This document shows, piece by piece, positions 3,309 through 18,736 of a stretch of DNA of 18,736 nucleotides (positions are counted from its first letter, which is position 1; every line of letters starts with the position of its first letter). The translations under genes and the position numbers were made by a program. The DNA is from a virus (Duplodnaviria; Heunggongvirae; Uroviricota; Caudoviricetes). The stretch lies in the IMG/VR virus record IMGVR_UViG_2609459839_000006. The stretch is one strand, 5' to 3'. A model generated the notes under the pieces. That model searched no databases, was not told where the DNA came from, and worked only from the letters and a program-made list of their open reading frames with translations.

Positions 3309-3884
3309 CTACGGCAGTGCTGGCCATTCAATATCCTGTGCAGTTGACGTATCAACACGGTTCAGCAATACCCGATACTTTTTCCATGCTTCCAGCAACG
3401 AGATTTCTTCCTCCGTTGCAATTTCCAGATCTGCAGCATCCTGAAGCGGCGCAATATGCTCACTGGCTACCTGCATCAGGTTGTTTTTTGTTTCTTCCGC
3501 CTCCCGGATCCGGAACAGTTTTTCTGCTTCCGTATCCTTCACCCAGGCTGTGCCGTTCCACTTCTGAAACTCCCCTTCCGGCGATAACCAGGTAACATTT
3601 TCCGGTAACGGACCGAGTTCAGAAATAAATAACGCGTCGCCGGAAGCCACGTCATAAACCGTTTTACCCCGATGATCTTCAACGAGATGCCACGATGACT
3701 CATCACTGTTGAAAACAGCCACGAAGCCAGCCGGAATATCTGGCGGTGCAATATCGGTACTGTTTGCTGGCAGACCTGTATGAGGCGGAATATATGCATC
3801 ACCTTCACCAATAAATTCATTAGTTCCGGCCAGCAGATTATAAATTTTTATGGTCCGTGGTTGTTCACTCATTCTGAATGCCAT
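3309..3884 (-). CDS. tfaQ: tail fibre assembly protein
   Basis: 191-aa [20 protein letters not shown]...; recognised Tfa family; ATG at 3882-3884 overlaps stfQ stop (TAATG). Confidence 0.9.
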
Positions 3885-6281: not shown

Positions 6282-6692
6282 ATGGATCAGGTAGTCATTT
6301 TTAAACAAATATTTGATAAAGTTCGAAACGATTTAAACTATCAATGGTTTTATTCTGAGCTAAAACGTCACAATGTCTCACATTACATTTACTATTTAGC
6401 CACAGAGAATGTTCATATTGTATTAAAAAATGATAATACAGTGTTATTAAAGGGCCTAAAAAACATTGTGTCTGTCAAATTTTCAAAGGATAGGCATCTT
6501 ATAGAAACGACCTCTAATAAGCTGAAATCCAGAGAGATCACATTTCAGGAATACAGAAGAAACCTTGCTAAAGCAGGAGTTTTTCGGTGGGTTACAAATA
6601 TCCACGAACAAAAAAGATATTACTATACCTTTGATAATTCATTACTATTTACTGAAAGCATCCAGAAAACTACACAGATCTTACCACGCTAA
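6282..6692 (+). CDS. ydfO: DUF1398-family prophage protein
   Basis: ORF track 6267-6692; internal ATG at 6282 (MDQVVIF...) has GGAAGG at 6269-6274; TAA at 6690-6692. Confidence 0.75.
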
Positions 6693-6843
6693 ACCATAAC
6701 GTCCGGCTTCTCTCACTCCTGAGCCGGACTGCATTGGTTTAATAAAAACCATCAACAATTGTGATTTAGATATTCGGAACCATTCAAATATAACAAAACC
6801 CCGTAAAAACGAGGTTTATGGATAAATTTTATTATTGAATACA

Positions 6844-7017
6844 TCAGATTAAATTAATCTTGACATCATAGCTTTCAAGACCCGTCATTTTTTCCCGTGC
6901 GGTAAACTGAATACTGGTAACTTCTTTCCCGGTCTTTTTCTTAAGTTCAATAATTTTTTTTGTTATATATTCAGAAATATCTGCTTCTGCTTTTGTTTTT
7001 AAGTTTTCAATATTCAT
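6844..7017 (-). CDS. gnsB: GnsA/GnsB-family small protein
   Basis: Not in ORF track (under 60 aa); hand translation of minus strand gives MNIENLKTKAEADISEYITKKIIELKKKTGKEVTSIQFTAREKMTGLESYDVKINLI (57 aa); AGAGGA upstream of the ATG at 7015-7017. Confidence 0.8.
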   Translation of the reverse strand: MNIENLKTKAEADISEYITKKIIELKKKTGKEVTSIQFTAREKMTGLESYDVKINLI

Positions 7018-7188
7018 CATTTCCTCTTTTAGTCTGTTATGACTTTCCAGTTACACAGTAAGTCGATTATATGGTGCAAACGTGTAAAAGATAAGATGAA
7101 ACATCGCAATAATCAACATACGATAGTCTAAATTTTACACAAACAGACAAAGAGAATTTTCCTGAATTATCAATGCAATAGCATCAAA

Positions 7189-7344
7189 TCAACTCAAGAG
7201 CCTTATTGCTGCTTCCAGAATTTCTTCTGAAGTAACATGTCGATCCGCGGCTACATAAATGACTTTATGATCTCCGGTCAGAGATGGAAACCCTGCGGCC
7301 ATTACAGTAAGGTGTGTTTTTTCGCCATTTGGATATTCACGCAT
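7189..7344 (-). CDS. ynfN: small prophage protein YnfN (cold-shock-associated)
   Basis: ORF track 7189-7380 starts at GTG; internal ATG at 7342-7344 gives the 51-aa MREYPNGEKTHLTVMAAGFPSLTGDHKVIYVAADRHVTSEEILEAAIRLLS that I recall as YnfN; start choice uncertain. Confidence 0.6.
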   Translation of the reverse strand: MREYPNGEKTHLTVMAAGFPSLTGDHKVIYVAADRHVTSEEILEAAIRLLS

Positions 7345-7460
7345 GATGGTGTTAACTCCAGTCATCGCTGGCACTACCACTGCTGGTTCAGAGTTAAAAA
7401 AACTATGATTTTTTTCATGATGTTACCGTAGTATGTGAGTATCCATCGAATAGACACCAA

Positions 7461-7484
7461 GCAAAAAAGCTCCCGAAGGAGCCT
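7461..7484 (-). terminator. intrinsic terminator downstream of cspI
   Basis: GCTCC-CGAA-GGAGC hairpin at 7469-7482, followed on the minus strand by a T-run (plus-strand A-run 7463-7468). Confidence 0.5.
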
Positions 7485-7689
7485 TCATTTTCACTTTTTT
7501 AAATCCAACGACAGACGGCTGGCATTTAAGTATTGTGAAATATTATCAAATGTAATCATCATTGATTTACAAAAGATACATTTTGCCCCGAAAGGATTCA
7601 TGTCAGAAACATCAAAAGATGATGTTCTATACTGGGAACCATGACAACACGGGCATCTAAAGTGAATATGGTTTGTAATATTGTCTACC

Positions 7690-7902
7690 TCAAAGCGCCA
7701 CTACATGAACAGCGGCAGGACCTTTAGGTCCGTTCTCAATACCAAATTCAACTTCCTGATTCTCAGTTAATGTTTTGAAATCGTTGCTCTGAATTGCTGA
7801 GAAATGGACAAACACATCTTTGCTGCCATCTTTCGGCGTGATGAAACCAAAACCTTTTTCAGGGTTAAACCATTTCACTAAACCAGTCATTTTGTTAGAC
7901 AT
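7690..7902 (-). CDS. cspI: cold shock protein, CspA family
   Basis: 70-aa [70 protein letters not shown] with RNP1/RNP2 motifs; ATG at 7900-7902. Confidence 0.95.
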
Positions 7903-8264
7903 AATTATTACCTTTTGAAGAAATTAGCCCTTGGGCAGAATGGTCCGAAAAAAAATATCAGAGAGAAAAACCAACAAGGAAATCTCAAGAGGTACAAATA
8001 ATAAAATTATAACAATGACTGCTTCAGATAAATTTGTAACAAACCAGAACACCATTAACGCATGATTAACCACCCATAGCAAGGATTACTTTTGTAAAGA
8101 AAAACACAGCAATGAAAGAATAGCTTTATTTATTAATAAAACGTGTCATTCTGATTAAGACCTTTTATCTTACCCTTAAGATTTCAGGAATTTTGGCTCA
8201 TGGAAGAGTCCTTTTTATTTAAATTTTACATTCCGCGATGTAAATGTTCCGATTTAATATTACC

Positions 8265-9288
<1,024 letters not shown>

Positions 9289-9292
<4 letters not shown>

Positions 9293-9600
9293 AGATATTT
9301 ATGATGAGGACGCTCGTGCTTATTGGCAGGATTTTCAATCTTAAAGGAGTACTGATGCTGCAGATAAGACTCAACTTTTTCTGACAATTTTTCTGCTACT
9401 TCCAGGAAGACTTGCCGGACGCTCCTTCTGGCTGCTGCCTCATAAAACTCCAGCGCAGCTCCTTCAACACGGTCCATGTCGACATCCAGGTCAAAAATTT
9501 CACCGTCAAAGCGTTCTTTGTCCTGTAAGGCTACAGTTACCGTAACTTTATTCTCAAAATTACGGACTCCTTTCACAACCAGTTCATAGTCTTGAGTCAT
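9289..9600 (-). CDS. ydfR: hypothetical protein within lysis cassette
   Basis: 103-aa ORF MTQDYELVVKGVRNFENK...; ATG at 9598-9600 with strong SD (GAGGAGAG); sits between holin and endolysin. Confidence 0.75.
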
Positions 9601-9604
9601 TGGA

Positions 9605-9820
9605 TTACTCTCCTCTCGCAGCCTTACGCCTGTCTTCTTTAATCTTGAAATAAAGATTTGTCAGATACGTCAGCAGGCCAAAAACCAGGCTACCCAGCAC
9701 ACCGATTGCAGCCCACTGTGACGGAGTTACTTTATCGAGTAACTGCAATGCCCAGAAACCAGCATTACCCGCCGATGTGCCATAGGCAACACCTGTTGTT
9801 AACTTATCCATTGATTTCAT
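9605..9820 (-). CDS. essQ: pinholin, phage 21 S-like, with dual-start motif
   Basis: ORF track 9605-9895; Met at 9818-9820 gives 71-aa [28 protein letters not shown]...[12 protein letters not shown], resembling S21 pinholin as recalled; second Met at codon 4. Confidence 0.85.
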
Positions 9821-10039
9821 ATCCTCACCCCGATGTACACGGATGGTGCAATATGTTTGAAAAGATCGGAGTCTACGGGGTAGTTTTGACAGCACACGTT
9901 GTTCTCAACGGCGCTAAAAAAACATACACATTAAAAATGTGGGTAATTATTTTGAAAGAAAGTCATATATAAAATAATAATACGAGAAATGTTTTCATAT
10001 TTAGTGTACTGTATACGGCCATTTATACAGGAAAAGCCT

Positions 10040-10210
10040 ATGTCAGAACGTAAAAACTCAAAATCACGCCGTAATTATCTCGTTAAATGTTCCTGCCCAA
10101 ACTGCACCCAAGAGTCAGAACACAGTTTTTCAAGAGTACAAAAAGGTGCCCTTTTGATCTGCCCTCATTGCAACAAAGTATTCCAGACAAATCTTAAAGC
10201 TGTAGCCTGA
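10040..10210 (+). CDS. ynfU: small zinc-ribbon protein
   Basis: ORF track 9989-10210; internal ATG at 10040 (MSERKNSKSRRNYLVKCSCPNCTQESEHSFSRVQKGALLICPHCNKVFQTNLKAVA, 56 aa) has AGGAAAA upstream; two CxxC pairs; gene name from memory, uncertain. Confidence 0.5.
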   Translation: MSERKNSKSRRNYLVKCSCPNCTQESEHSFSRVQKGALLICPHCNKVFQTNLKAVA

Positions 10211-10268
10211 TTGATTTTATTAGTAACAAGTATTTTTTATATTTTAATAATATATTTAAAGCAGATAA

Positions 10269-10293
10269 TAAAAAAACCGCCTGAGCGGGTTTG
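10269..10293 (-). terminator. intrinsic terminator downstream of cspB
   Basis: Minus strand reads AAACCCGC-TCAG-GCGG followed by TTTTTTT. Confidence 0.6.
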
Positions 10294-10573
10294 AGATTGT
10301 GGTGCTTTTTGTGGGAGTCATCCACTTACGCACTTTGTTTTGCCATGCCAGCAGTTAGCTTCTGCTGTAAAACTATTCATGCAGCAAACCTGCACTTCAC
10401 CACAATGGTTAGCATACTTTTCCTGATTAAGATTTTGCCAAATATGCTAGCCATTGTTTCATGTATTGGACCTCCTTACTTTTTATTAAAGAGATCCAAT
10501 ATTCACTACTCTGTCCGTATCTCTACTCAGGCATCAGCCTTCTTCGTTATCGTATACAGACGAGCGATGAATT

Positions 10574-10789
10574 TTAATCAGTAATGATGACATTTGCTGC
10601 TGCAGGACCTTTAGCACCACTCTCTATAGAGAAGGTAACCTTTTGACCTTCAAATAAGGTTCGATAATTATCATTCTGAATCGCAGAAAAATGCACAAAC
10701 ACATCTTTACTACCATCAACAGGAGAAATAAAGCCGAAACCTTTATCAGCGTTAAACCATTTTACTAAACCAGTCATTTTATTTGACAT
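10574..10789 (-). CDS. cspB: cold shock protein, CspA family
   Basis: 71-aa [71 protein letters not shown]; ATG at 10787-10789. Confidence 0.95.
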
Positions 10790-11089
10790 TCTACATTCCT
10801 TAACTTGAGCCTTTCGGCATAAATGGTTTGCATAACAGAAACGACTTCGTACTTAATTGGAGAGACTCAAAGAAGGAATAAGTGAATAACACCTGAAATG
10901 AGAACTGCTTTAGTAAACTACTTCGTATATCGTCTGTTCTTCAAACCGACGCAATCATTAACGCATAGTTGAACATATGAAGCAATGTTTATTTTAGACA
11001 TCCAGCCATCTTCAACCCCATCAAAAAACTATAGCTTTCTTCAGGAACGTGTGTATAGTGCGCCAAGTTATCAGTATTAAGGAATTTTT

Positions 11090-11302
11090 TTGTCCCGTAA
11101 AATGACAGGAATTGTCAAAACCTTTGACGGCAAAAGCGGCAAGGGTCTTATCACCCCATCCGATGGTCGTATCGATGTCCAGCTTCATGTTTCAGCGCTC
11201 AATCTCCGCGATGCAGAAGAAATTACCACCGGATTACGCGTGGAATTTTGCCGGATAAATGGTCTGCGTGGCCCTTCAGCTGCCAATGTTTACCTTTCAT
11301 GA
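11090..11302 (+). CDS. cspF: cold shock protein homolog, CspF/CspH type
   Basis: 70-aa [70 protein letters not shown]; ORF-track start is TTG at 11090 (AAGGA at 11079-11083); alternative ATG at 11102. Confidence 0.85.
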
Positions 11303-11594
11303 GCTATATTAAAGCTTTAATTTCAGGCCCCATCGGATCACACATGGAGAGTTTTTATGAATAACCCCGTCTGTCTTGATGACTGGTTGATTGGCTTTAA
11401 AAGCTTATGCTGTACTTTGGCCGTAATAGCTCTGCTAATAATATAATAAGCAGACTCATTGTGTTTAGGGACATTGTACTGGAAGAAAACATTTTAAACA
11501 TCAGGCAAATAACCAAGTCACCAGCTAAATAATAAGTTAACAGACATGAGTCCCGGGATGAGATTCAACATTACCATTGCCCCATTTAAAGCAC

Positions 11595-11618
11595 AAAACC
11601 CGCTCATCAGCGGGTTTT
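11595..11618. terminator. strong hairpin, candidate tR'-like late terminator and/or cspF terminator
   Basis: Perfect 10-bp stem AAAACCCGCT / AGCGGGTTTT with 4-nt loop CATC; T-rich sequence follows on the plus strand. Confidence 0.5.
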
Positions 11619-11724
11619 CTACTTTTTCTTAACGTCGGGTATACAAAGCCCATCGTTGAAAAAATTTTATCCATATTTTTTTGAAAAATGCAAACATCAT
11701 GTCGCCATCTTCAGCAAAAATCAT

Positions 11725-12477
11725 TTATCTCGTCACCTTCCTCAATTGCGCTTCCGCGTATGCTTCTTCCTGCCAGCACTTTGTTACCAGTTTACCAATG
11801 ACGTCCGCATACCCCTTATACCACTGATAATCGGTCAGGTCTGGTACCAGCTTCTGGACATGACGTCGTGCCAGCGTGGTCGGTAAACGACTAAACCGGT
11901 TTCCATTACAACGCCCACAAATCTTATATACCGGTACGCCATGAAACCGGGTTCTTTTTTCATCCAGAACAATCCCTTTACCCTTACACCCTCTGCACGC
12001 TGTGCTGGCTTCGCCCTTACCATGGCAATGCTGACATAGTTCCTTCACCCATTCTTCCTTGATTACAGATTCCCCGCGTCTGTAGTGTTTCACCACTTCG
12101 CGCAATACATTATAAAATCCCGTACCTGAACAATGCTCACAGCGAGCCTTACTTGCCGCAGACCTGGAGTAATCAGCAAAGGCAAAACTCACGAGGTAAG
12201 GAATAATCTGTAACCGGATTTCTTCACTCAATTTGTTCAATGTCGGGTTATCCAGTGCCATCGCGTAATTTAGCAGGCCTTCAATCGCAAACTGAGGGTC
12301 CTGAACACCAACTTTTGCCAGAAATAAGGCCAACCCAAGTGGTGCTTTCGACTGCACCATCCCCTGCGCTGCCATTACATCCGTAATTGTTAAACAACCG
12401 GTGCCTGTCGCTGGAGCGTCATCGCTCAATTTTGGAGATTTTGGGGAGTAATATTTTGGTAAGGCTTCAAGGTTCAT
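11725..12477 (-). CDS. quuQ: late-gene antiterminator Q-like protein
   Basis: ORF track 11725-12507 starts at TTG; ATG at 12475-12477 has GGAGAA upstream and gives about 250 aa; Cys-rich CxxC clusters (CEHCSGTG, CQHCHGKG, CRGCKGKG, CGRCNG) typical of Q antiterminators. Confidence 0.85.
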   Translation of the reverse strand: MNLEALPKYYSPKSPKLSDDAPATGTGCLTITDVMAAQGMVQSKAPLGLALFLAKVGVQDPQFAIEGLLNYAMALDNPTLNKLSEEIRLQIIPYLVSFAFADYSRSAASKARCEHCSGTGFYNVLREVVKHYRRGESVIKEEWVKELCQHCHGKGEASTACRGCKGKGIVLDEKRTRFHGVPVYKICGRCNGNRFSRLPTTLARRHVQKLVPDLTDYQWYKGYADVIGKLVTKCWQEEAYAEAQLRKVTR

Positions 12478-12490
12478 GCTCGTTCTCCAC

Positions 12491-13402
12491 TTACGCCAGT
12501 ACGCCAATTGCCAGCGCGCGATCGATAAAACGAAATATCAGCTCCAGTTGGGAGCCATACTTATCTTCAAATGCCACTGTATCCGTATGCAGCTCGTTGT
12601 GATGCTTTCTGCACAAAGGCAACACAAAGAGATCATGTGCTTTTGTTCCCATTCCGCCCTGCCCGTGACCAATCAGATGATGCGGATCGTCGGCTGGCAT
12701 ACCGCAGCAAGCACACGGCTGTGTCTTAACCCAACGTGTGTATTTCTCCTTAACCCAGCGGCGACGTTTAGGCAGCTTCATGAAAGATTCCGGAGACTCT
12801 GGATCAACGGTGATGCTTACCACCGTCTTTTCCTGTGGTGATTTTTGTTGCTGGTGGGCGTAAGGCAACGGTGCAAGATTTTTTGTGCGTTGTTTCAATA
12901 TGCTGGTGGCGGTCTGCTCTCCCGGTACGATGTCGCTTTCGCGGTACACCGAGCAGATTTTTTCCGCTGGTAATCCCAGCGAACGACGCGATACAGCCTC
13001 AGGTAGTGCATCCACCACCTGATTGCAGACCGCCCACCAGGATAATTCAGCCAAAGATAATTCCCGCTCCTGCGTACCGCTTATTGCGTGACGGATGACG
13101 TCAATCACCCATGCTGTCAGATTTTGTTGAGCAAGCAGCTCCAGTGATTCCGATGTCTGGTCACGCAGTTGGTTGTCGCAGTGCCAGCACAACACCATTG
13201 CGCCGGTACCATAGTCGAGACTGAGAGCTTTCTTAACCTCGAACCCGCGCCTGCGGTAAGAATGAATCAGCCATTCGGCCTGTTCTGCAGTGCATGGAGG
13301 GTGCTGGAACCATTCAGACTTGAATGCGTGAGAATACCGCCCGTGCGTGCAGGCAAGAACGGGCGAATTATCAGAATTGTAATATTTTGCGTTGCGTGCC
13401 AT
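12491..13402 (-). CDS. ydfU: DUF968-like protein with C-terminal Cys/His-rich HNH-like motif
   Basis: 303-aa ORF; ATG at 13400-13402 with GGAGAA upstream; C-terminal CACCGMPADDPHHLIGHGQGG...LCRKHHNELH. Confidence 0.8.
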   Translation of the reverse strand: MARNAKYYNSDNSPVLACTHGRYSHAFKSEWFQHPPCTAEQAEWLIHSYRRRGFEVKKALSLDYGTGAMVLCWHCDNQLRDQTSESLELLAQQNLTAWVIDVIRHAISGTQERELSLAELSWWAVCNQVVDALPEAVSRRSLGLPAEKICSVYRESDIVPGEQTATSILKQRTKNLAPLPYAHQQQKSPQEKTVVSITVDPESPESFMKLPKRRRWVKEKYTRWVKTQPCACCGMPADDPHHLIGHGQGGMGTKAHDLFVLPLCRKHHNELHTDTVAFEDKYGSQLELIFRFIDRALAIGVLA

Positions 13403-13468
13403 CGGTTTTCTCCGGTGGCACGGTGTTACTCAGCGGGAGTTCAGCCCCGCGCAAGATTGTAGATGAGT

Positions 13469-13720
13469 TTATTCTCCTGAAAAAGCAGAAAAGCCAGCTT
13501 TTATTCCGATCTCTTTCAATGCCTGTAATGAAGTGACAAACTCACCTTCGCGCAAGATAAATCCGTCCGTGACCCGAGCATCCACAAAATTAATTAACGC
13601 AGCCCCATTCTTTCGCAAACACATAATGCGGTAATGACTAACAAGATTTCCATTTTCAACGCACACAGCATAGAGGCCATCTTCACAAAAAATTTTACGC
13701 AGTTCTTCGATGTTCATCAT
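13469..13720 (-). CDS. rem: hypothetical prophage protein Rem
   Basis: 83-aa MMNIEELRKIFCEDGLYAVCVENGNLVSHYRIM...; tandem ATG ATG at 13715-13720 with GGAAGGA upstream. Confidence 0.75.
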   Translation of the reverse strand: MMNIEELRKIFCEDGLYAVCVENGNLVSHYRIMCLRKNGAALINFVDARVTDGFILREGEFVTSLQALKEIGIKAGFSAFSGE

Positions 13721-13850
13721 CAGAATCCTTCCGGATAATTAGCTCTCCCCTTTAAGGGACCATCCCTCTTATCCCTGCGCGCTACTTAAGTATTTTTGAT
13801 TCTATTCCGGCACCGTCCAGAACTTCAAACGCGTTGAAAATAAAAACAAA

Positions 13851-13868
13851 AACCCGCCGAAGCGGGTT
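13851..13868 (-). terminator. intrinsic terminator of the relB-relE-hokD operon
   Basis: Minus strand reads AACCCGC-TTCG-GCGGGTT followed by TTTTGTTTTTATTTT. Confidence 0.7.
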
Positions 13869-13936
13869 AAGTGCGGGTGCGTTGAGGATGCCTGCCACAT
13901 CAGAGGTGGCGAGGGATTTCTCCCCCGCCGGGTCTC

Positions 13937-14092
13937 TTACTCCTCAGGTTCGTAAGCTGTGAAGACAGCGACCTCCGTCTGGCCGGTTCGGATTCGTACC
14001 TCGCAGAGGTCTTTCCTCGTTACCAGTGCCGTCACTATGACGGTTAAACAGATGACGATCAGGGCGATTAACATCGCCTTTTGCTGCTTCAT
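13937..14092 (-). CDS. hokD: Hok-family small membrane toxin (RelF)
   Basis: Not in ORF track; hand translation gives MKQQKAMLIALIVICLTVIVTALVTRKDLCEVRIRTGQTEVAVFTAYEPEE (51 aa); ATG at 14090-14092. Confidence 0.85.
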   Translation of the reverse strand: MKQQKAMLIALIVICLTVIVTALVTRKDLCEVRIRTGQTEVAVFTAYEPEE

Positions 14093-14163
14093 AGCCTGCT
14101 TCTCCTGTCAACGCAAAGCAGAAGTGTCACCTTCGGTGCGAAACAGAGATGTCATGCTTTGGT

Positions 14164-14451
14164 TCAGAGAATGCGTTTGACCGCCTCGCTATATACTTCC
14201 GAGCGTTCTCTTTTCCCAACAGAAATCACGAAAACGACAACTTTCTCGTCTATAACCTGGTATACAAGGCGATAGCCTGAAGACCGGAGCTTAATCTTGT
14301 AACAATCAGGCATACCACGGAGCTTGTTTGCTTCAATCCGGGGTGACTCAAGTACTTCAACCAGCTTCTTTTTCAACTGTTCACGTACCGTCGAGCCCAG
14401 CTTTCGCCATTCCTTTAGTGCCCGCTCGTCAAAATCCAGAAAATACGCCAT
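14164..14451 (-). CDS. relE: RelE mRNA interferase toxin
   Basis: 95-aa MAYFLDFDERALKEWRKLGSTVREQLKKKL...; start overlaps relB stop (ATGA). Confidence 0.95.
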   Translation of the reverse strand: MAYFLDFDERALKEWRKLGSTVREQLKKKLVEVLESPRIEANKLRGMPDCYKIKLRSSGYRLVYQVIDEKVVVFVISVGKRERSEVYSEAVKRIL

Positions 14452-14690
14452 CAGAGTTCATCCAGCGTCACACGTACTGGCTTAGGATTACGAAGCCGTT
14501 CTTTCACTATCTCCACAAGTTCAGCATCTTCATCACTCAGGAGTGTCTGTTTGAACGGCAAGCGTTCATTGTCAGCGATATACTCGAGCATGAGACGAAG
14601 CGCTTCAGAAGGAGTTACACCCATTTTTTCAAGCGCGGCGTAAGAACGCGCTTTAAGTTCATCGTCAATACGCAGGTTAATGCTACCCAT
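14451..14690 (-). CDS. relB: RelB antitoxin
   Basis: 79-aa MGSINLRIDDELKARSYAALEKMGVTPSEALRLMLEYIADNERLPFKQTLL...; ATG at 14688-14690 with AGAGGTG upstream. Confidence 0.95.
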   Translation of the reverse strand: MGSINLRIDDELKARSYAALEKMGVTPSEALRLMLEYIADNERLPFKQTLLSDEDAELVEIVKERLRNPKPVRVTLDEL

Positions 14691-14694
14691 GTCT

Positions 14695-14730
14695 TACACC
14701 TCTTGTAATTACAAATGTCATTACAAGTAT
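14695..14730 (-). promoter_or_regulatory. relO operator / relBE promoter region
   Basis: Repeated TTGTAAT/ATTACAA hexads immediately upstream of relB: TTGTAATTACAA at 14703-14714 and TGTCATTACAAG nearby. Confidence 0.7.
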
Positions 14731-15020
14731 CGCACTACAACATGCTTAGGGCAAGTCACGAAGGAAGTCAGAAAGTAGTCGTAAGAACGGTGATCACTGT
14801 CCGCTTTGTGCCAGGAGCAGCCATTGCTAAGTCCATCCTGTATTGTGCAGGTCAGCTCGTTTTTAAAGAGTCCGGCCATCATCTTACTGGTACAGACACC
14901 ATATACTTTGTGACGGTCAGGCTACATATGCACAACTCAACTTATTCATCTATTTTTTGCTTTAGCATGTCAGTGTTGCTTTCTCGTCGGCGGGTGAGCG
15001 GTGACCTGACCTGTCGATAA
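14715..15020 (+). CDS. doubtful 101-aa ORF divergent from relB (possibly the annotated ydfV)
   Basis: ATG at 14715 lies inside the relO operator; no obvious SD; composition not convincingly coding. Confidence 0.2.
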   Translation: MSLQVSHYNMLRASHEGSQKVVVRTVITVRFVPGAAIAKSILYCAGQLVFKESGHHLTGTDTIYFVTVRLHMHNSTYSSIFCFSMSVLLSRRRVSGDLTCR

Positions 15021-15172
15021 AGGAACGTAACACGTTTTATGCAACACCCGCATGCGGCAGAAAATTATTGCCGAACGTTTACCCCTGTCAACAAGCTTTA
15101 CTTTCTGAGGCGCGCCAGCCCGCGAGGAAAACAATCTGAACATCAAACAATTAATGACACAAGAAATACGAT

Positions 15173-15199
15173 TAAAGATTTTTTTGTGCATGCCGATAG
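15173..15199 (+). promoter_or_regulatory. sigma-28 (FliA) class promoter of flxA
   Basis: TAAAGATT (15173-15180), 11-nt spacer, GCCGATAG (15192-15199), against consensus TAAAGTTT-N11-GCCGATAA; AGGAG at 15212-15216. Confidence 0.75.
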
Positions 15200-15222
15200 T
15201 GCTTTTTTAAAAGGAGAAATCT

Positions 15223-15555
15223 ATGTCTGTCACAATTCAGGGAAATACCTCAACCGTTATTTCAAACAACTCCGCCCCGGAAGGAACATCAGAAATAGCC
15301 AAAATCACAAGACAAATTCAGGTGCTGACTGAAAAGCTTGGGAAAATCTCATCGGAAGAGGGGATGACGACACAGCAGAAAAAAGAAATGGCTGCATTGG
15401 TACAGAAGCAAATTGAAAGCCTCTGGGCTCAACTGGAGCAGTTGTTAAGGCAGCAGGCAGAGAAAAAGAATGAAGACGCGACAGTTCAGCCTGATAAAAA
15501 AGAAGAGAAAAAAGACGATACAAATACCGCTGGCACCATTGATATTTACGTCTAA
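15223..15555 (+). CDS. flxA: FliA-regulated protein FlxA
   Basis: 110-aa MSVTIQGNTSTVISNNSAPEGTSEIAKITRQIQVLTEKLGKISSEEG...; ATG at 15223. Confidence 0.9.
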   Translation: MSVTIQGNTSTVISNNSAPEGTSEIAKITRQIQVLTEKLGKISSEEGMTTQQKKEMAALVQKQIESLWAQLEQLLRQQAEKKNEDATVQPDKKEEKKDDTNTAGTIDIYV

Positions 15556-15569
15556 GTGACAGCCGTATT

Positions 15570-15596
15570 GTGGCCCTCATCGGGCCACTTTTCGCC
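15570..15596 (+). terminator. intrinsic terminator of flxA
   Basis: GTGGCCC-TCATC-GGGCCAC followed by TTTTCG. Confidence 0.65.
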
Positions 15597-15991
15597 ATCA
15601 GCCTTTTCTTTAAAGACATATTATCTTTGTATCATTTCTGATAGTTAACATTACAAGATATAAGTAATGGACGCACTCCCAATTAGTCTATTTAAATCGC
15701 CACGAGTTTAACTGACAACCCATGATCAATTATGAATTGCAACTATTTCTGTAGTCACTTTTGTGGGGACAGTCCACAAAACTGCCAACTTCCGCTTCTT
15801 GCTCTTAGCGGACATTAGCATAGGCTATTTACCATAACGCCTCATTACGCGCACCGCCCAGACTGACTCAGCGCGTTTCTGGCATATCCCCGGTAAAACA
15901 AGTAACAAACCACCCGAAAATGAACACCAGAAACGCGACTTAAGAATCTACCCTATGAATGGATATGCACTCAACCGAATCGATCTTGGTT

Positions 15992-16810
15992 TCAATCTTT
16001 TTTATCGGGATCAGGCTTCTTTTTAGGTAACTTCGGGGGCTTAACTTGCTGATGACTTTGCGTTCGGCGCGTAAGCCAGGGATGGTCAGCTTTAGGTTTA
16101 ACATAGTATTTTGAGCGTAAATCAATACGGGCATTATCCACTCGTTCATGGACACTCTTTTCATCATCCAGTGGTATAGGCTCCGGGCCATCAACATACT
16201 TTTCCCAGCCCAGCGCTTTCCCGTCATACAGAACGTTAATTTCACCGTCAAAGTTCTCGCATACAGTAACAACCGAATGCCTAAGTCGATATCCCCGGCC
16301 CTCACTGCGTACCTGAAACGCACTGCTTTTGTACTGGAAAGTGAGATTTTTAGACAGAACGCGCTTCGCCTGTAGGCTGAAGATATAACCCAGTTCCTCT
16401 TCAGAATGGTGCACATCAAGATGAGCATTATCAGTAGTACGAGGCGACGTAGCGAACCGGTTGTTATAGGCTTCAATAAAGGTCGGCAACCATGCATTTG
16501 CTGTTTCAATATCACTGATATTCTGAAGCCGCATTTCTTTGACCAGCCTGTCCTGTAGTGTCTGATTGGCGCGCTCTACCCGCCCTTTTGCCTGCGGGCT
16601 GTTGGCATGGATTGGCTCGATGCCCAGTGTCTTTATCGCACGAGTGAACTGGGTCAGCTCACCTTCCCGCTCTGGGTTATTTACCCTGAATATACTGTGT
16701 CTATCAGAGTAGAGAGCGAGCGGTACGCCATGATCATTAAGGTAACCCCGGAGGGTTTCCATGTAAGCCCGGGTTGCCACAGCACATATCAAGAATGGTT
16801 GCCGGTGCAC
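15992..16810 (-). pseudogene. DDE (rve/integrase-core) transposase catalytic fragment, OrfB-like, interrupted
   Basis: 272-aa ORF with ..LALYSDRHS.. and ..SPQAKGRVERANQTLQD..; GTG at 16808-16810 is immediately preceded by in-frame TGA (16811-16813); same frame is open upstream to about 17089; possibly the K-12 intK remnant (from memory). Confidence 0.6.
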
Positions 16811-16977
16811 TCACTGCGCCACGTCCTGAAAATTACCCTGATAGAAAGCCAGTATGCGCTGCATAACTTCGCTCTTCCGGCACTCGCGACAGATTATGTT
16901 TAGGCGACTGTCGTAGCGACGTATTTCTCCGTCAGGTGATGACCAGATAAGGTCCGGATCAACCACAGCAGGTTTCT

Positions 16978-17331
16978 TCACCTTTGCCCTCGAGAGTTTT
17001 TTGCGGGCGTTTTGCCAGTCCTTACGCGCCTGTTCAGAGGGGAATAACCCGTAGCCTCCATAATTGCAGGCACTAGCGCCGTGAACTTTTCACGCTTATC
17101 CCTGGTGTCGATAGCCTTCCAGCGTTCAAATATCTTCACTCGATTAACGCCAAGCGCTCGCTGATCAATCGCGCCACCTTCATATGTGACACGCTGAACA
17201 TCGATGTTCGGGCGCTCTTTCAAAGCCCAGAATGCTTCAGTGATTAATATCGTCGCCTGCTCCTGTGTCATTCCTGGTCGACATATCCAGGCATCCAGAG
17301 CCTCACGAGCCTGTTCAGGAGTGATTTTCAT
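16978..17331 (-). CDS. OrfA-like upstream ORF of the IS-like element (117 aa)
   Basis: ATG at 17329-17331, overlaps dicC 3' end by 17 nt; ends TGA 16978-16980, 18 nt after heptamer A_AAA_AAC (minus strand, 16996-17002). Confidence 0.4.
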   Translation of the reverse strand: MKITPEQAREALDAWICRPGMTQEQATILITEAFWALKERPNIDVQRVTYEGGAIDQRALGVNRVKIFERWKAIDTRDKREKFTALVPAIMEATGYSPLNRRVRTGKTPAKNSRGQR

Positions 17332-17545
17332 TGTTCAACCGCCCCGCCCGCTTCGTCTTACGATATTCATCATAAACTTTGGGATCATACTGAAGCTCCC
17401 CGCCAGATGCCTCCTGTAGACGCATCGCGCGACCTTCGGGAACTAAATCCCCTTTCCAGCTATAAAGCGAAGCCAAACGAATACCTGCTGCTTGTGCAAG
17501 TTTTGTTTTTGAACCGAAATACAAAAGAGCGTCAGTTTTAAGCAT
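17315..17545 (-). CDS. dicC: Cro-like repressor DicC
   Basis: 76-aa MLKTDALLYFGSKTKLAQAAGIRLASLYSWKGDLVPEGRAMRLQEASGG...; ATG at 17543-17545. Confidence 0.9.
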   Translation of the reverse strand: MLKTDALLYFGSKTKLAQAAGIRLASLYSWKGDLVPEGRAMRLQEASGGELQYDPKVYDEYRKTKRAGRLNNENHS

Positions 17546-17559
17546 TTAAAACACCTTTA

Positions 17560-17579
17560 TTGTTAGTCATAACTAACAA
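17560..17579. promoter_or_regulatory. operator palindrome between divergent dicC and dicA
   Basis: TTGTTAGT-CATA-ACTAACAA, perfect 8-bp inverted arms. Confidence 0.7.
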
Positions 17580-17628
17580 GATAGATGTTAACAAAAACAT
17601 AGTCAATACGATTTAGCATTAGCTAACT

Positions 17629-18036
17629 ATGGAAACAAAAAATTTAACTATCGGCGAACGCATCAGGTATCGTCGGAAAAACCTCAAACACACCCAAAGG
17701 TCTCTTGCTAAAGCCCTGAAAATCTCCCATGTGTCTGTATCACAATGGGAACGGGGTGATAGTGAACCTACAGGGAAGAACCTTTTTGCCCTCAGCAAAG
17801 TATTGCAATGCTCACCAACATGGATTCTATTTGGCGATGAAGACAAGCAACCAACACCACCTGTTGAGAAGCCAGTTGCCTTATCCCCCAAAGAACTAGA
17901 GCTCCTTGAGCTGTTTAATGCACTGCCAGAATCAGAACAGGATACCCAGCTCGCCGAAATGCGAGCTCGAGTAAAAAACTTCAATAAACTCTTTGAAGAA
18001 TTACTAAAAGCCCGTCAGCGGACAAATAAAAGATAA
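17629..18036 (+). CDS. dicA: HTH-XRE repressor DicA (CI/C2-like)
   Basis: 135-aa METKNLTIGERIRYRRKNLKHTQRSLAKALKISHVSVSQWERGDSEPTGKNLFALSKVLQCSPTWILFG...; ATG at 17629. Confidence 0.95.
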   Translation: METKNLTIGERIRYRRKNLKHTQRSLAKALKISHVSVSQWERGDSEPTGKNLFALSKVLQCSPTWILFGDEDKQPTPPVEKPVALSPKELELLELFNALPESEQDTQLAEMRARVKNFNKLFEELLKARQRTNKR

Positions 18037-18096
18037 CATCATCAATGAGTTATCTTTTACCACATCAATTATGTTAGCTATAGCATACAAAATCAC

Positions 18097-18125
18097 TTGA
18101 CCGATATGTTAGTCATGGCTAATCT
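18097..18125 (+). promoter_or_regulatory. candidate sigma-70 promoter of the ydfABC (dicB) operon with overlapping operator-like site
   Basis: TTGACC (18097-18102), 17-nt spacer, TAATCT (18120-18125); spacer contains TGTTAGTCAT, identical to one arm of the 17560-17579 palindrome; related TGTTAGCTA at 18072-18080. Confidence 0.5.
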
Positions 18126-18202
18126 TGTTTGCATCAACACACCGCACGGTGTTCTCAGCAAACAGTTCCGCTACCCCAGCGTTAAGGGGAAATGAGGTCA
18201 GC

Positions 18203-18358
18203 ATGGATACTATCGATCTTGGCAACAACGAATCTCTGGTGTACGGCGTGTTTCCAAACCAGGACGGCACGTTCACCGCAATGACGTATACCAAAAGCAA
18301 AACGTTTAAAACCGAAAATGGTGCCCGTCGCTGGCTGGAAAGAAACTCAGGTGAGTGA
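18203..18358 (+). CDS. ydfA: small prophage protein YdfA
   Basis: ORF track 18125-18358; internal ATG at 18203 (MDTIDLGNNESLVYGVFPNQDGTFTAMTYTKSKTFKTENGARRWLERNSGE, 51 aa) with GAGGT at 18194-18198. Confidence 0.85.
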   Translation: MDTIDLGNNESLVYGVFPNQDGTFTAMTYTKSKTFKTENGARRWLERNSGE

Positions 18359-18359
18359 T

Positions 18360-18488
18360 ATGGATTTCGACACAATCATGGAAAAGGCTTACGAAGAATA
18401 CTTCGAAGGCCTTGCCGAAGGCGAAGAAGCTCTCAGCTTCAGTGAGTTTAAACAGGCGCTTTCCAGTTCGGCAAAATCTAACGGCTGA
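18360..18488 (+). CDS. ydfB: small acidic prophage protein YdfB
   Basis: Not in ORF track; ATG at 18360 gives MDFDTIMEKAYEEYFEGLAEGEEALSFSEFKQALSSSAKSNG (42 aa); TGA at 18486-18488. Confidence 0.8.
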   Translation: MDFDTIMEKAYEEYFEGLAEGEEALSFSEFKQALSSSAKSNG

Positions 18489-18517
18489 TAAGCGAAACAG
18501 CACCGCGAGGAATCAGT

Positions 18518-18736
18518 ATGCAGAAACGAGAACCCGTCATCATCGCGCCAGACTATACCGATGATGAACTTTATGAGTGGATGCGCCAGAAAATTAATGC
18601 AGCGCAGGATCTGAAATGGGCTAATGAAGCCAGGGCTAAGCAGGCTGAAAATCTGTCCGCTCTGGAGCAGGATATCACCAATCTGGAAAAAGCAGCGGCA
18701 TTAAGCATTGCCAGAATGATTACATACCCGCGTTAG
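18518..18736 (+). CDS. ydfC: prophage protein YdfC
   Basis: 72-aa MQKREPVIIAPDYTDDELYEWMRQKINAAQDLKWANEARAKQAENLSALEQDITNLEKAAALSIARMITYPR; GAGG at 18507-18510; TAG at 18734-18736 ends the window. Confidence 0.85.
   Translation: MQKREPVIIAPDYTDDELYEWMRQKINAAQDLKWANEARAKQAENLSALEQDITNLEKAAALSIARMITYPR

Follow-up and report, generated by a model that had tools for sequence, protein, structure and literature searches.

The ORF that carries the label ydfU in the stretch of Escherichia coli DNA analysed here (the window, 18,736 nt, derived from the cryptic lambdoid prophage Qin) is very probably a natural, rare chimeric allele of ydfU that has kept its HNH domain and lost its N-terminal domain, i.e. 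a decaying remnant rather than a new nuclease architecture. The ORF is located at 12491–13402 (−) and encodes 303 aa, as a first-pass annotation of the window had claimed. However, the label 'ydfU' hid a 418-bp deletion chimera, and this correction is the main outcome of our analysis. Of the three Cys/His features responsible for its unusual look, two are by-products of the fusion. The result has little weight for nuclease biology, as the HNH nature of YdfU had been recognised already.

In strains MG1655 and 30088, canonical YdfU is a protein of 349 aa, and a separate 92-codon gene (WP_012304870.1; phrog_1212, function unknown) is positioned 1 nt upstream of ydfU, with rem further upstream. 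Alignment of the window to a K-12-type locus (L001) returned two blocks, window 11001–13213 and 13211–15000, between which the window lacks 418 bp of the reference. The deletion junction at 13211–13213 consists of an ATA microhomology, corresponding to the Tyr64 codon common to both parents. Since the parental frames are offset by 1 nt and 418 equals 3×139+1, the deletion is in frame, and the ORF list together with the alignment resolves the ORF into codons 1–64 of the upstream gene, codons 111–349 of ydfU and a stop codon. Residues 1–64 (13211–13402, −) are 100 % identical to residues 1–64 of the 92-aa product (P0031), while residues 65–303 (12494–13210, −) correspond to residues 111–349 of YdfU from K-12 Qin (P76162; PF06147; PHROG 96), from which they differ by a single L-to-Q substitution at residue 163 (window 12915); the junction peptide of the chimera reads …ALSLDYGTGAMVLCWHCDNQLR…. 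We propose that a microhomology-mediated deletion of 418 bp fused codon 64 of the 92-codon gene to codon 111 of ydfU.

In the PHROG search, the canonical protein matches phrog_96 from end to end (profile 1–334) and the 92-aa protein matches phrog_1212 from end to end; the window protein covers only positions 107–334 of the phrog_96 profile, and its residues 27–66 are matched by phrog_1212. The full-length PHROG 96 architecture, in which an N-terminal domain of ~190 aa bears a C93, H/C101, C118, C/H121 site, is not found in the window protein, as YdfU residues 1–110, including C93 and H101, are deleted from this allele. The ORF had previously been read as an intact YdfU of 303 aa, with CTHGRY (residues 18–23), CWHCDNQ (residues 72–78) and a C-terminal motif all forming parts of one Cys/His-rich nuclease. 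The three strings do share one open reading frame and the C-terminal motif is a real HNH motif, but we give this reading practically no credence: the K-12 form is 349 aa long and the window lacks 418 bp relative to both MG1655 and strain 30088, residues 1–64 are identical to the product of a separate gene, the canonical form is found on at least 1000 contigs vs 18 for the chimera, C18 is not conserved and lies outside the phrog_1212 core, and CWHC is without its partners C93 and H101. The idea that the 349-aa form is itself an annotation artefact is contradicted by its full-length phrog_96 coverage and by 173 phage records.

Such an artefact might instead be sought in the window, with the 418-bp gap arising from assembly or sequencing and the real genome possessing two normal genes. 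None of the 5,426 complete RefSeq E. coli genomes contains the junction-centred 40-mer, and every carrier that we found is a draft or metagenome assembly, both of which are in keeping with this explanation. In approximately 1,280 records of those complete genomes, both flanks occur at ≥99 % identity but as two pieces separated by 418 bp. Against an artefact, the same junction recurs in independent assemblies of different samples (NCBI, ENA and Logan), on carrier contigs of up to 466 kb and with varying structures around it, and the deleted sequence is unique, with a microhomology of 3 nt, and offers no repeat prone to collapse. The exact 303-aa protein is deposited in the public protein collection that gave the contig counts above (GCI46344.1), and it is listed in 36 index blocks and occurs on at least 24 draft or metagenome contigs (24 read) in the three sets of assemblies. 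Window 6491–18736 is 100 % identical to one draft E. coli contig (GCA_000601295.1, JHDO01000084.1). All six draft or metagenome loci that were fetched (L003–L008) contain the junction 40-mer, and their surroundings differ: in the flank of L006, Q has been fused to a DUF1327 gene by another deletion, in L008 other genes replace flxA and ydfV, and L004 is without an intact ISNCY transposase. An artefact is thus very hard to credit; because the exact protein and junction recur across public assemblies with differing surroundings, we regard the chimeric allele, on these comparisons, as natural, rare and inherited, and not as an assembly error.

The N-terminal Cys/His pairs reported for the ORF are present as strings, but they do not constitute one YdfU feature, given that CTHGRY comes from the upstream gene. 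CTHGRY sits inside the foreign 64 residues, outside the phrog_1212 core (the profile begins at residue 27), and its C18 is replaced by Ser in a 77 %-identical homologue; judged by its sequence, CTHGRY is not a metal motif. The second string, C72-W-H-C75 (13178–13189, −), is by conservation and alignment (A1) the surviving half of a four-ligand Cys/His site (canonical C93, H/C101, C118, C/H121). An exhaustive search with the canonical protein (E≤1e-3) returned 2,822 cluster representatives, some of them full-length relatives sharing 28–58 % identity, and conservation was counted over 151 representatives clustered at 50 % identity (numbering canonical/window where two numbers are given). In this set C93 is conserved in 79/81 and C118 in 83/84, position 101 is H in 54 and C in 25 of 83, and position 121 is C in 47 and H in 36 of 84. 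The site (canonical 93–121) falls outside the Pfam DUF968 match (canonical 160–346) and all other Pfam matches found, and its conservation across the full-length family appears to be mildly new.

We modelled both proteins using AF2. The canonical model (27-sequence alignment, mean pLDDT 84.4) has an N-domain spanning residues 1 to ~190, a disordered linker (226–243) and a C-domain with pLDDT >90. C93 and H101 precede a β-hairpin (105–110, 113–118), with C118 and C121 at the hairpin end and the start of a helix (119–125), a predicted layout compatible with a treble-clef-type zinc site. Residues 1–70 of the chimera are modelled with pLDDT 31–51, vs 78–94 for the equivalent part of the canonical model. 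With C93, H101 and residues 1–110 lost and residues 1–70 predicted at such low confidence, the N-domain of the window allele is most probably non-functional. This N-terminal domain, which is presumably involved in targeting a substrate or partner, would have been destroyed in the chimera, and the product would be an HNH module left on its own behind foreign N-terminal residues that fold poorly, in line with a decaying remnant.

The C-terminal part of the protein fared differently, and the annotation of its Cys/His motif as HNH-like was borne out. The motif string CACCGMPADDPHHLIGHGQGGMGTKAHDLFVLPLCRKHHNELH occupies residues 230–272 (12587–12715, −) and was assigned from conservation counts and alignment to Ref and YbcO; it does not end the protein, as had been stated, since 31 residues come after it. 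Pfam DUF968 (PF06147) matches residues 114–300 (12503–13063, −) over its full profile (1–171/171) far beyond chance (E 1.1e-76; 257.1 bits vs a cut-off of 27.8), thereby answering positively the HMM comparison that had been suggested for this family. The corresponding comparison with HNH families gave a divided result, with HNHc_6 just detected (27.0 bits vs a threshold of 26.6) and no generic HNH family match, while that with NinG/Rap was negative, NinG not appearing in the Pfam search of the window protein at E≤1. RecA_dep_nuc (Ref, PF16786) scored below its gathering threshold (18.6 bits vs 26.9), and NCBIfam has no YdfU model.

Structure prediction also supported the expected fold. In the chimera model, residues 205–303 have pLDDT 89–98 and form the same β-β-α arrangement (β1 239–242, β2 260–263, α 265–273) as the canonical model (β 285–288, β 306–309, α 311–319). 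Foldseek returned nothing significant, although its four top matches were all HNH proteins. A single-sequence search of the PDB gave only chance-level RNase matches, and the profile search gave a match to YbcO at E 0.34. Alignment of the family profile to Ref using hhalign (probability 77 %, E 2e-5) superimposed C-x2-C, HH and LPLCRxHH. The protein thus has the β-β-α core fold of His-Me finger proteins, a catalytic His at the end of β1 (H241/H242, aligned with the HH of Ref) and, by sequence conservation, a helix metal-ligand His and a zinc knuckle (CxxC plus CxxH/C). Consistent with the prediction that the motif would be conserved in homologues, its positions are kept in 77–99 % of the representatives clustered at 50 % identity: C276/230 in 78/82, C279/233 in 66/84, H287/241 in 79/87, H288/242 in 81/87, K300/254 in 84/90, D303/257 in 88/89, C310/264 in 74/86, H314/268 in 77/84 and H318/272 in 76/82. 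Position 313/267 is H in 46 and C in 21 of 85 and is a likely zinc ligand because H and C alternate there, as they do at zinc ligands. The window allele is therefore shown to keep a complete DUF968-type His-Me finger domain (HNH, β-β-α-metal) at residues ~205–303 (12494–12790, −).

Based on the alignment, C230, C233, C264 and H267 would hold a structural zinc, and the active site would comprise H241/H242 at the end of β1, D257 nearby and H268/H272 on the helix, with H242 as the putative general base and H268/H272 as the putative metal ligands. Alternatively, the HNH-like domain might bind zinc or DNA without any catalytic role, as is probably the case in PdcB-type relatives; full-length relatives such as P1 PdcB are maintained despite being without the HH pair and the helix histidines, and the literature reports no activity for the family. 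We consider this unlikely, seeing that the window protein and ~90 % of the representatives keep every His-Me signature residue and that Ref, its closest relative in structure, has nuclease activity. No biochemical data and no nuclease activity have been reported in the literature for any DUF968/YdfU-family protein, and the 2024 y-ome survey still places ydfU among uncharacterised genes; this uncharacterised y-gene has the RecA-dependent nuclease Ref as its nearest structural relative.

In intact phages (mEp460, SfV and Stx2 phages), a full protein of 330–350 aa appears to be encoded between RusA/KilA-N and Q. Among 176 phage records with a homologue, 173 encode at least 80 % of the full-length protein, and the full-length carriers include mEp460, SfV (orf45), Stx2 phages and Klebsiella, Yersinia and Vibrio phages. 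The gene order is RusA, KilA-N, the YdfU homologue and Q in mEp460, and a rem-like gene, the 92-aa gene, DUF968, RusA and a DUF1133 family gene in E. coli strain 148. From its position and its relatives, the intact 330–350-aa protein is most likely a metal-dependent DNA nuclease for phage recombination or replication.

Prophages in decay present a different picture. Public protein sets hold many other, independent deletion or frameshift chimeras involving ydfU (P0046, P0050, P0112, P0117, P0167, P0187, P0215, P0231 and P0232). In P0046 a frameshift has fused the 92-aa protein to the whole of YdfU, in P0050 and P0117 the C-terminal part of YdfU follows an N-terminus from YdaT or IstB, and P0112 is a YdfU-RusA chimera. 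In other chimeras, the YdfU N-domain is joined to tail-fibre, J, capsid or portal fragments; we rejected these apparent fusions as clues to function, as they are products of deletion in degrading prophages. Breakpoints frequently fall in ydfU when lambdoid prophages decay, and the window allele is one more case.

It might nevertheless be argued that the chimera is a functional, selected variant, in which the HNH nuclease has been freed of a regulatory or targeting N-domain and has become, for example, domesticated or toxic. The fusion is in frame with all catalytic and zinc residues (roles assigned by alignment) intact, the allele has been retained in contigs despite later divergence of their flanks, and in Ref a partial N-terminal truncation enhances targeted cleavage (PMC4330346). 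On the other hand, an in-frame outcome has a one-in-three chance, the carriers may represent one clone-like lineage, and the numerous further ydfU chimeras produced by deletion (with parts of tail, capsid, portal, IstB or YdaT genes) are plainly decay products; moreover, residues 1–70 are predicted with low confidence, and PADLOC returned no defence-system match for the chimera, canonical YdfU, the 92-aa protein or Rem. Selection for a liberated nuclease is accordingly judged quite improbable. The same low standing applies to a broader proposal, namely that the YdfU family consists of two-zinc-site nin-region nucleases whose N-domain C-x7-H/C ... C-x2-C/H site gates or targets the HNH domain, and that the chimera is a separation-of-function allele, untargeted, possibly deregulated and kept in an E. 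coli lineage.

Around the chimera, the transcription order in the window is relB, relE, hokD, rem, the 303-codon ORF, ydfT, cspF/cspB and lysis genes, nearly all of them on the minus strand; K-12 rem, ydfT and dicC were placed in the window by exact match. Directly downstream of the chimera, ydfT (quuQ; 11725–12477, −), starting 13 nt past the stop codon of the 303-codon ORF, encodes a Q-type antitermination protein (Pfam Antiterm, E 4e-54) and is identical to K-12 ydfT. The ORF is therefore directly upstream of a Q antiterminator in a nin-type region, as had been noted, and the homologue in the functional phage mEp460 has the same placement. Downstream of ydfT, the window has one extra T within an intergenic T-run (window 11676) relative to the K-12-type locus. 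Matches at the Rfam gathering threshold (3343–3541, 7663–8048 and 10558–10950, −) comprise an IS009 RNA and two 5′ leaders of the cspA thermoregulator type that precede prophage cold-shock genes.

rem (13469–13720, −; 83 aa) lies just upstream of the ORF, as previously described, and its DNA is an exact match to K-12 rem. The gene belongs to phrog_340, and the same gene in L003–L008 is assigned to PF27490 (Rem). It had been listed as having no assigned function; however, Rem has been shown by experiment to be an antirepressor of DicA, its expression raising dicBp-lacZ 165-fold and causing DicB/DicF-dependent filamentation (Ragunathan et al. 2023, PMC10448788). A PSI-BLAST search starting from the Gifsy-type antirepressors GfoA/FsoA had led to Rem (PMC10448788), the antirepressor that relieves dicBF of repression by DicA. 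dicC is present at 17315–17545 (−, exact K-12 match), and a 135-codon repressor ORF occupies the dicA position (17629–18036, +), its nucleotides not being identical to K-12 dicA; the window thus also encodes the target repressor of Rem, at a distance of ~4 kb from rem. Directly after hokD comes a strong hairpin resembling a terminator (AACCCGCTTCGGCGGGTT followed by a T-run; 13851–13868, −), and a promoter-like site (13799–13828, −) precedes rem. Together these suggest that rem, the chimera and ydfT may form their own transcription unit, with the site counts of the promoter/terminator scan being no higher than those of shuffled controls.

A 97-aa ORF on the opposite strand (13169–13462, +) matches phrog_2734 (E 3e-28). 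When two homologous loci were compared in the minus-strand frame, 27/49 differences fell at codon position 3, and 18 codons differed synonymously vs 21 non-synonymously; read in the antisense frame, the same two loci gave 6 and 33, respectively, and the second locus had two stops. We therefore rejected the (+) ORF as a gene and regard it as a shadow ORF, and the phrog_2734 family and the annotated antisense CDS in phage PhiR42_1 are probably mis-annotations.

With respect to known systems, the HNH nature of YdfU is already known from Pfam, from PHROG (where PHROG 96 is labelled 'HNH endonuclease') and from the 2017 His-Me classification, in which Jablonska et al. (2017, PMC5714182) assigned YdfU of the Qin prophage (NP_416078) and YbcO (3g27) to His-Me finger group 7 (DUF968+DUF1364). 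The same study remarked on the RusA and Q neighbours and hypothesised a role in recombination or repair like that of NinG and Ref, and an HNH zinc-finger motif of DUF968 had been described earlier (Curtis et al. 2014, PMC4118853). The nuclease motif reading of the first-pass annotation was hence correct but already published; what is mildly new is the chimeric allele, along with the second conserved Cys/His site in full-length family members.

We infer that the closest solved relatives of the HNH domain are P1 Ref and DLP12 YbcO. Ref (PDB 3PLW; PF16786), a RecA-dependent HNH endonuclease, has the closest fold to the YdfU domain, but its core helix has a long finger-loop insertion (PMC5714182) for which no counterpart was identified in YdfU, whose helix histidines H267/H268/H272 are contiguous, and its N-terminus is disordered and basic whereas YdfU has a folded N-domain. 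YbcO of DLP12 (PDB 3G27; DUF1364) is a 96-aa stand-alone domain with weak profile similarity to YdfU (E 0.34). λ NinG/Rap (PF05766), a branch-specific HNH endonuclease encoded in the λ nin region, resembles YdfU in lying upstream of Q and in being a His-Me finger protein with a CxxC knuckle, but there is no Pfam match between the two and hhalign aligned only 18 columns at a probability of 7 %. We rejected a relationship at the profile level (hhalign probability 7.3 %); by this comparison NinG/Rap is a positional analogue of YdfU, not a family member. A λ Orf-like N-domain has been proposed for Gram-positive DUF968/HNHc_6 proteins (PMC4118853), and a λ Orf/NinB-like N-domain was likewise rejected for YdfU (hhalign probability 0.06 %). 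Phage P1 carries both Ref and a YdfU-like protein, PdcB (pdcB, L009 2405–3448; annotated as 'unknown protein function'), a full-length YdfU homologue (26 % identity over 91 %) without the HH pair and helix histidines, so that PdcB is probably a catalytically dead member. K-12 YdfU itself shares with the chimera the locus between rem and ydfT as well as the DUF968 domain; the chimera differs from it in being without residues 1–110, and with them C93 and H101, and in having 64 foreign N-terminal residues instead.
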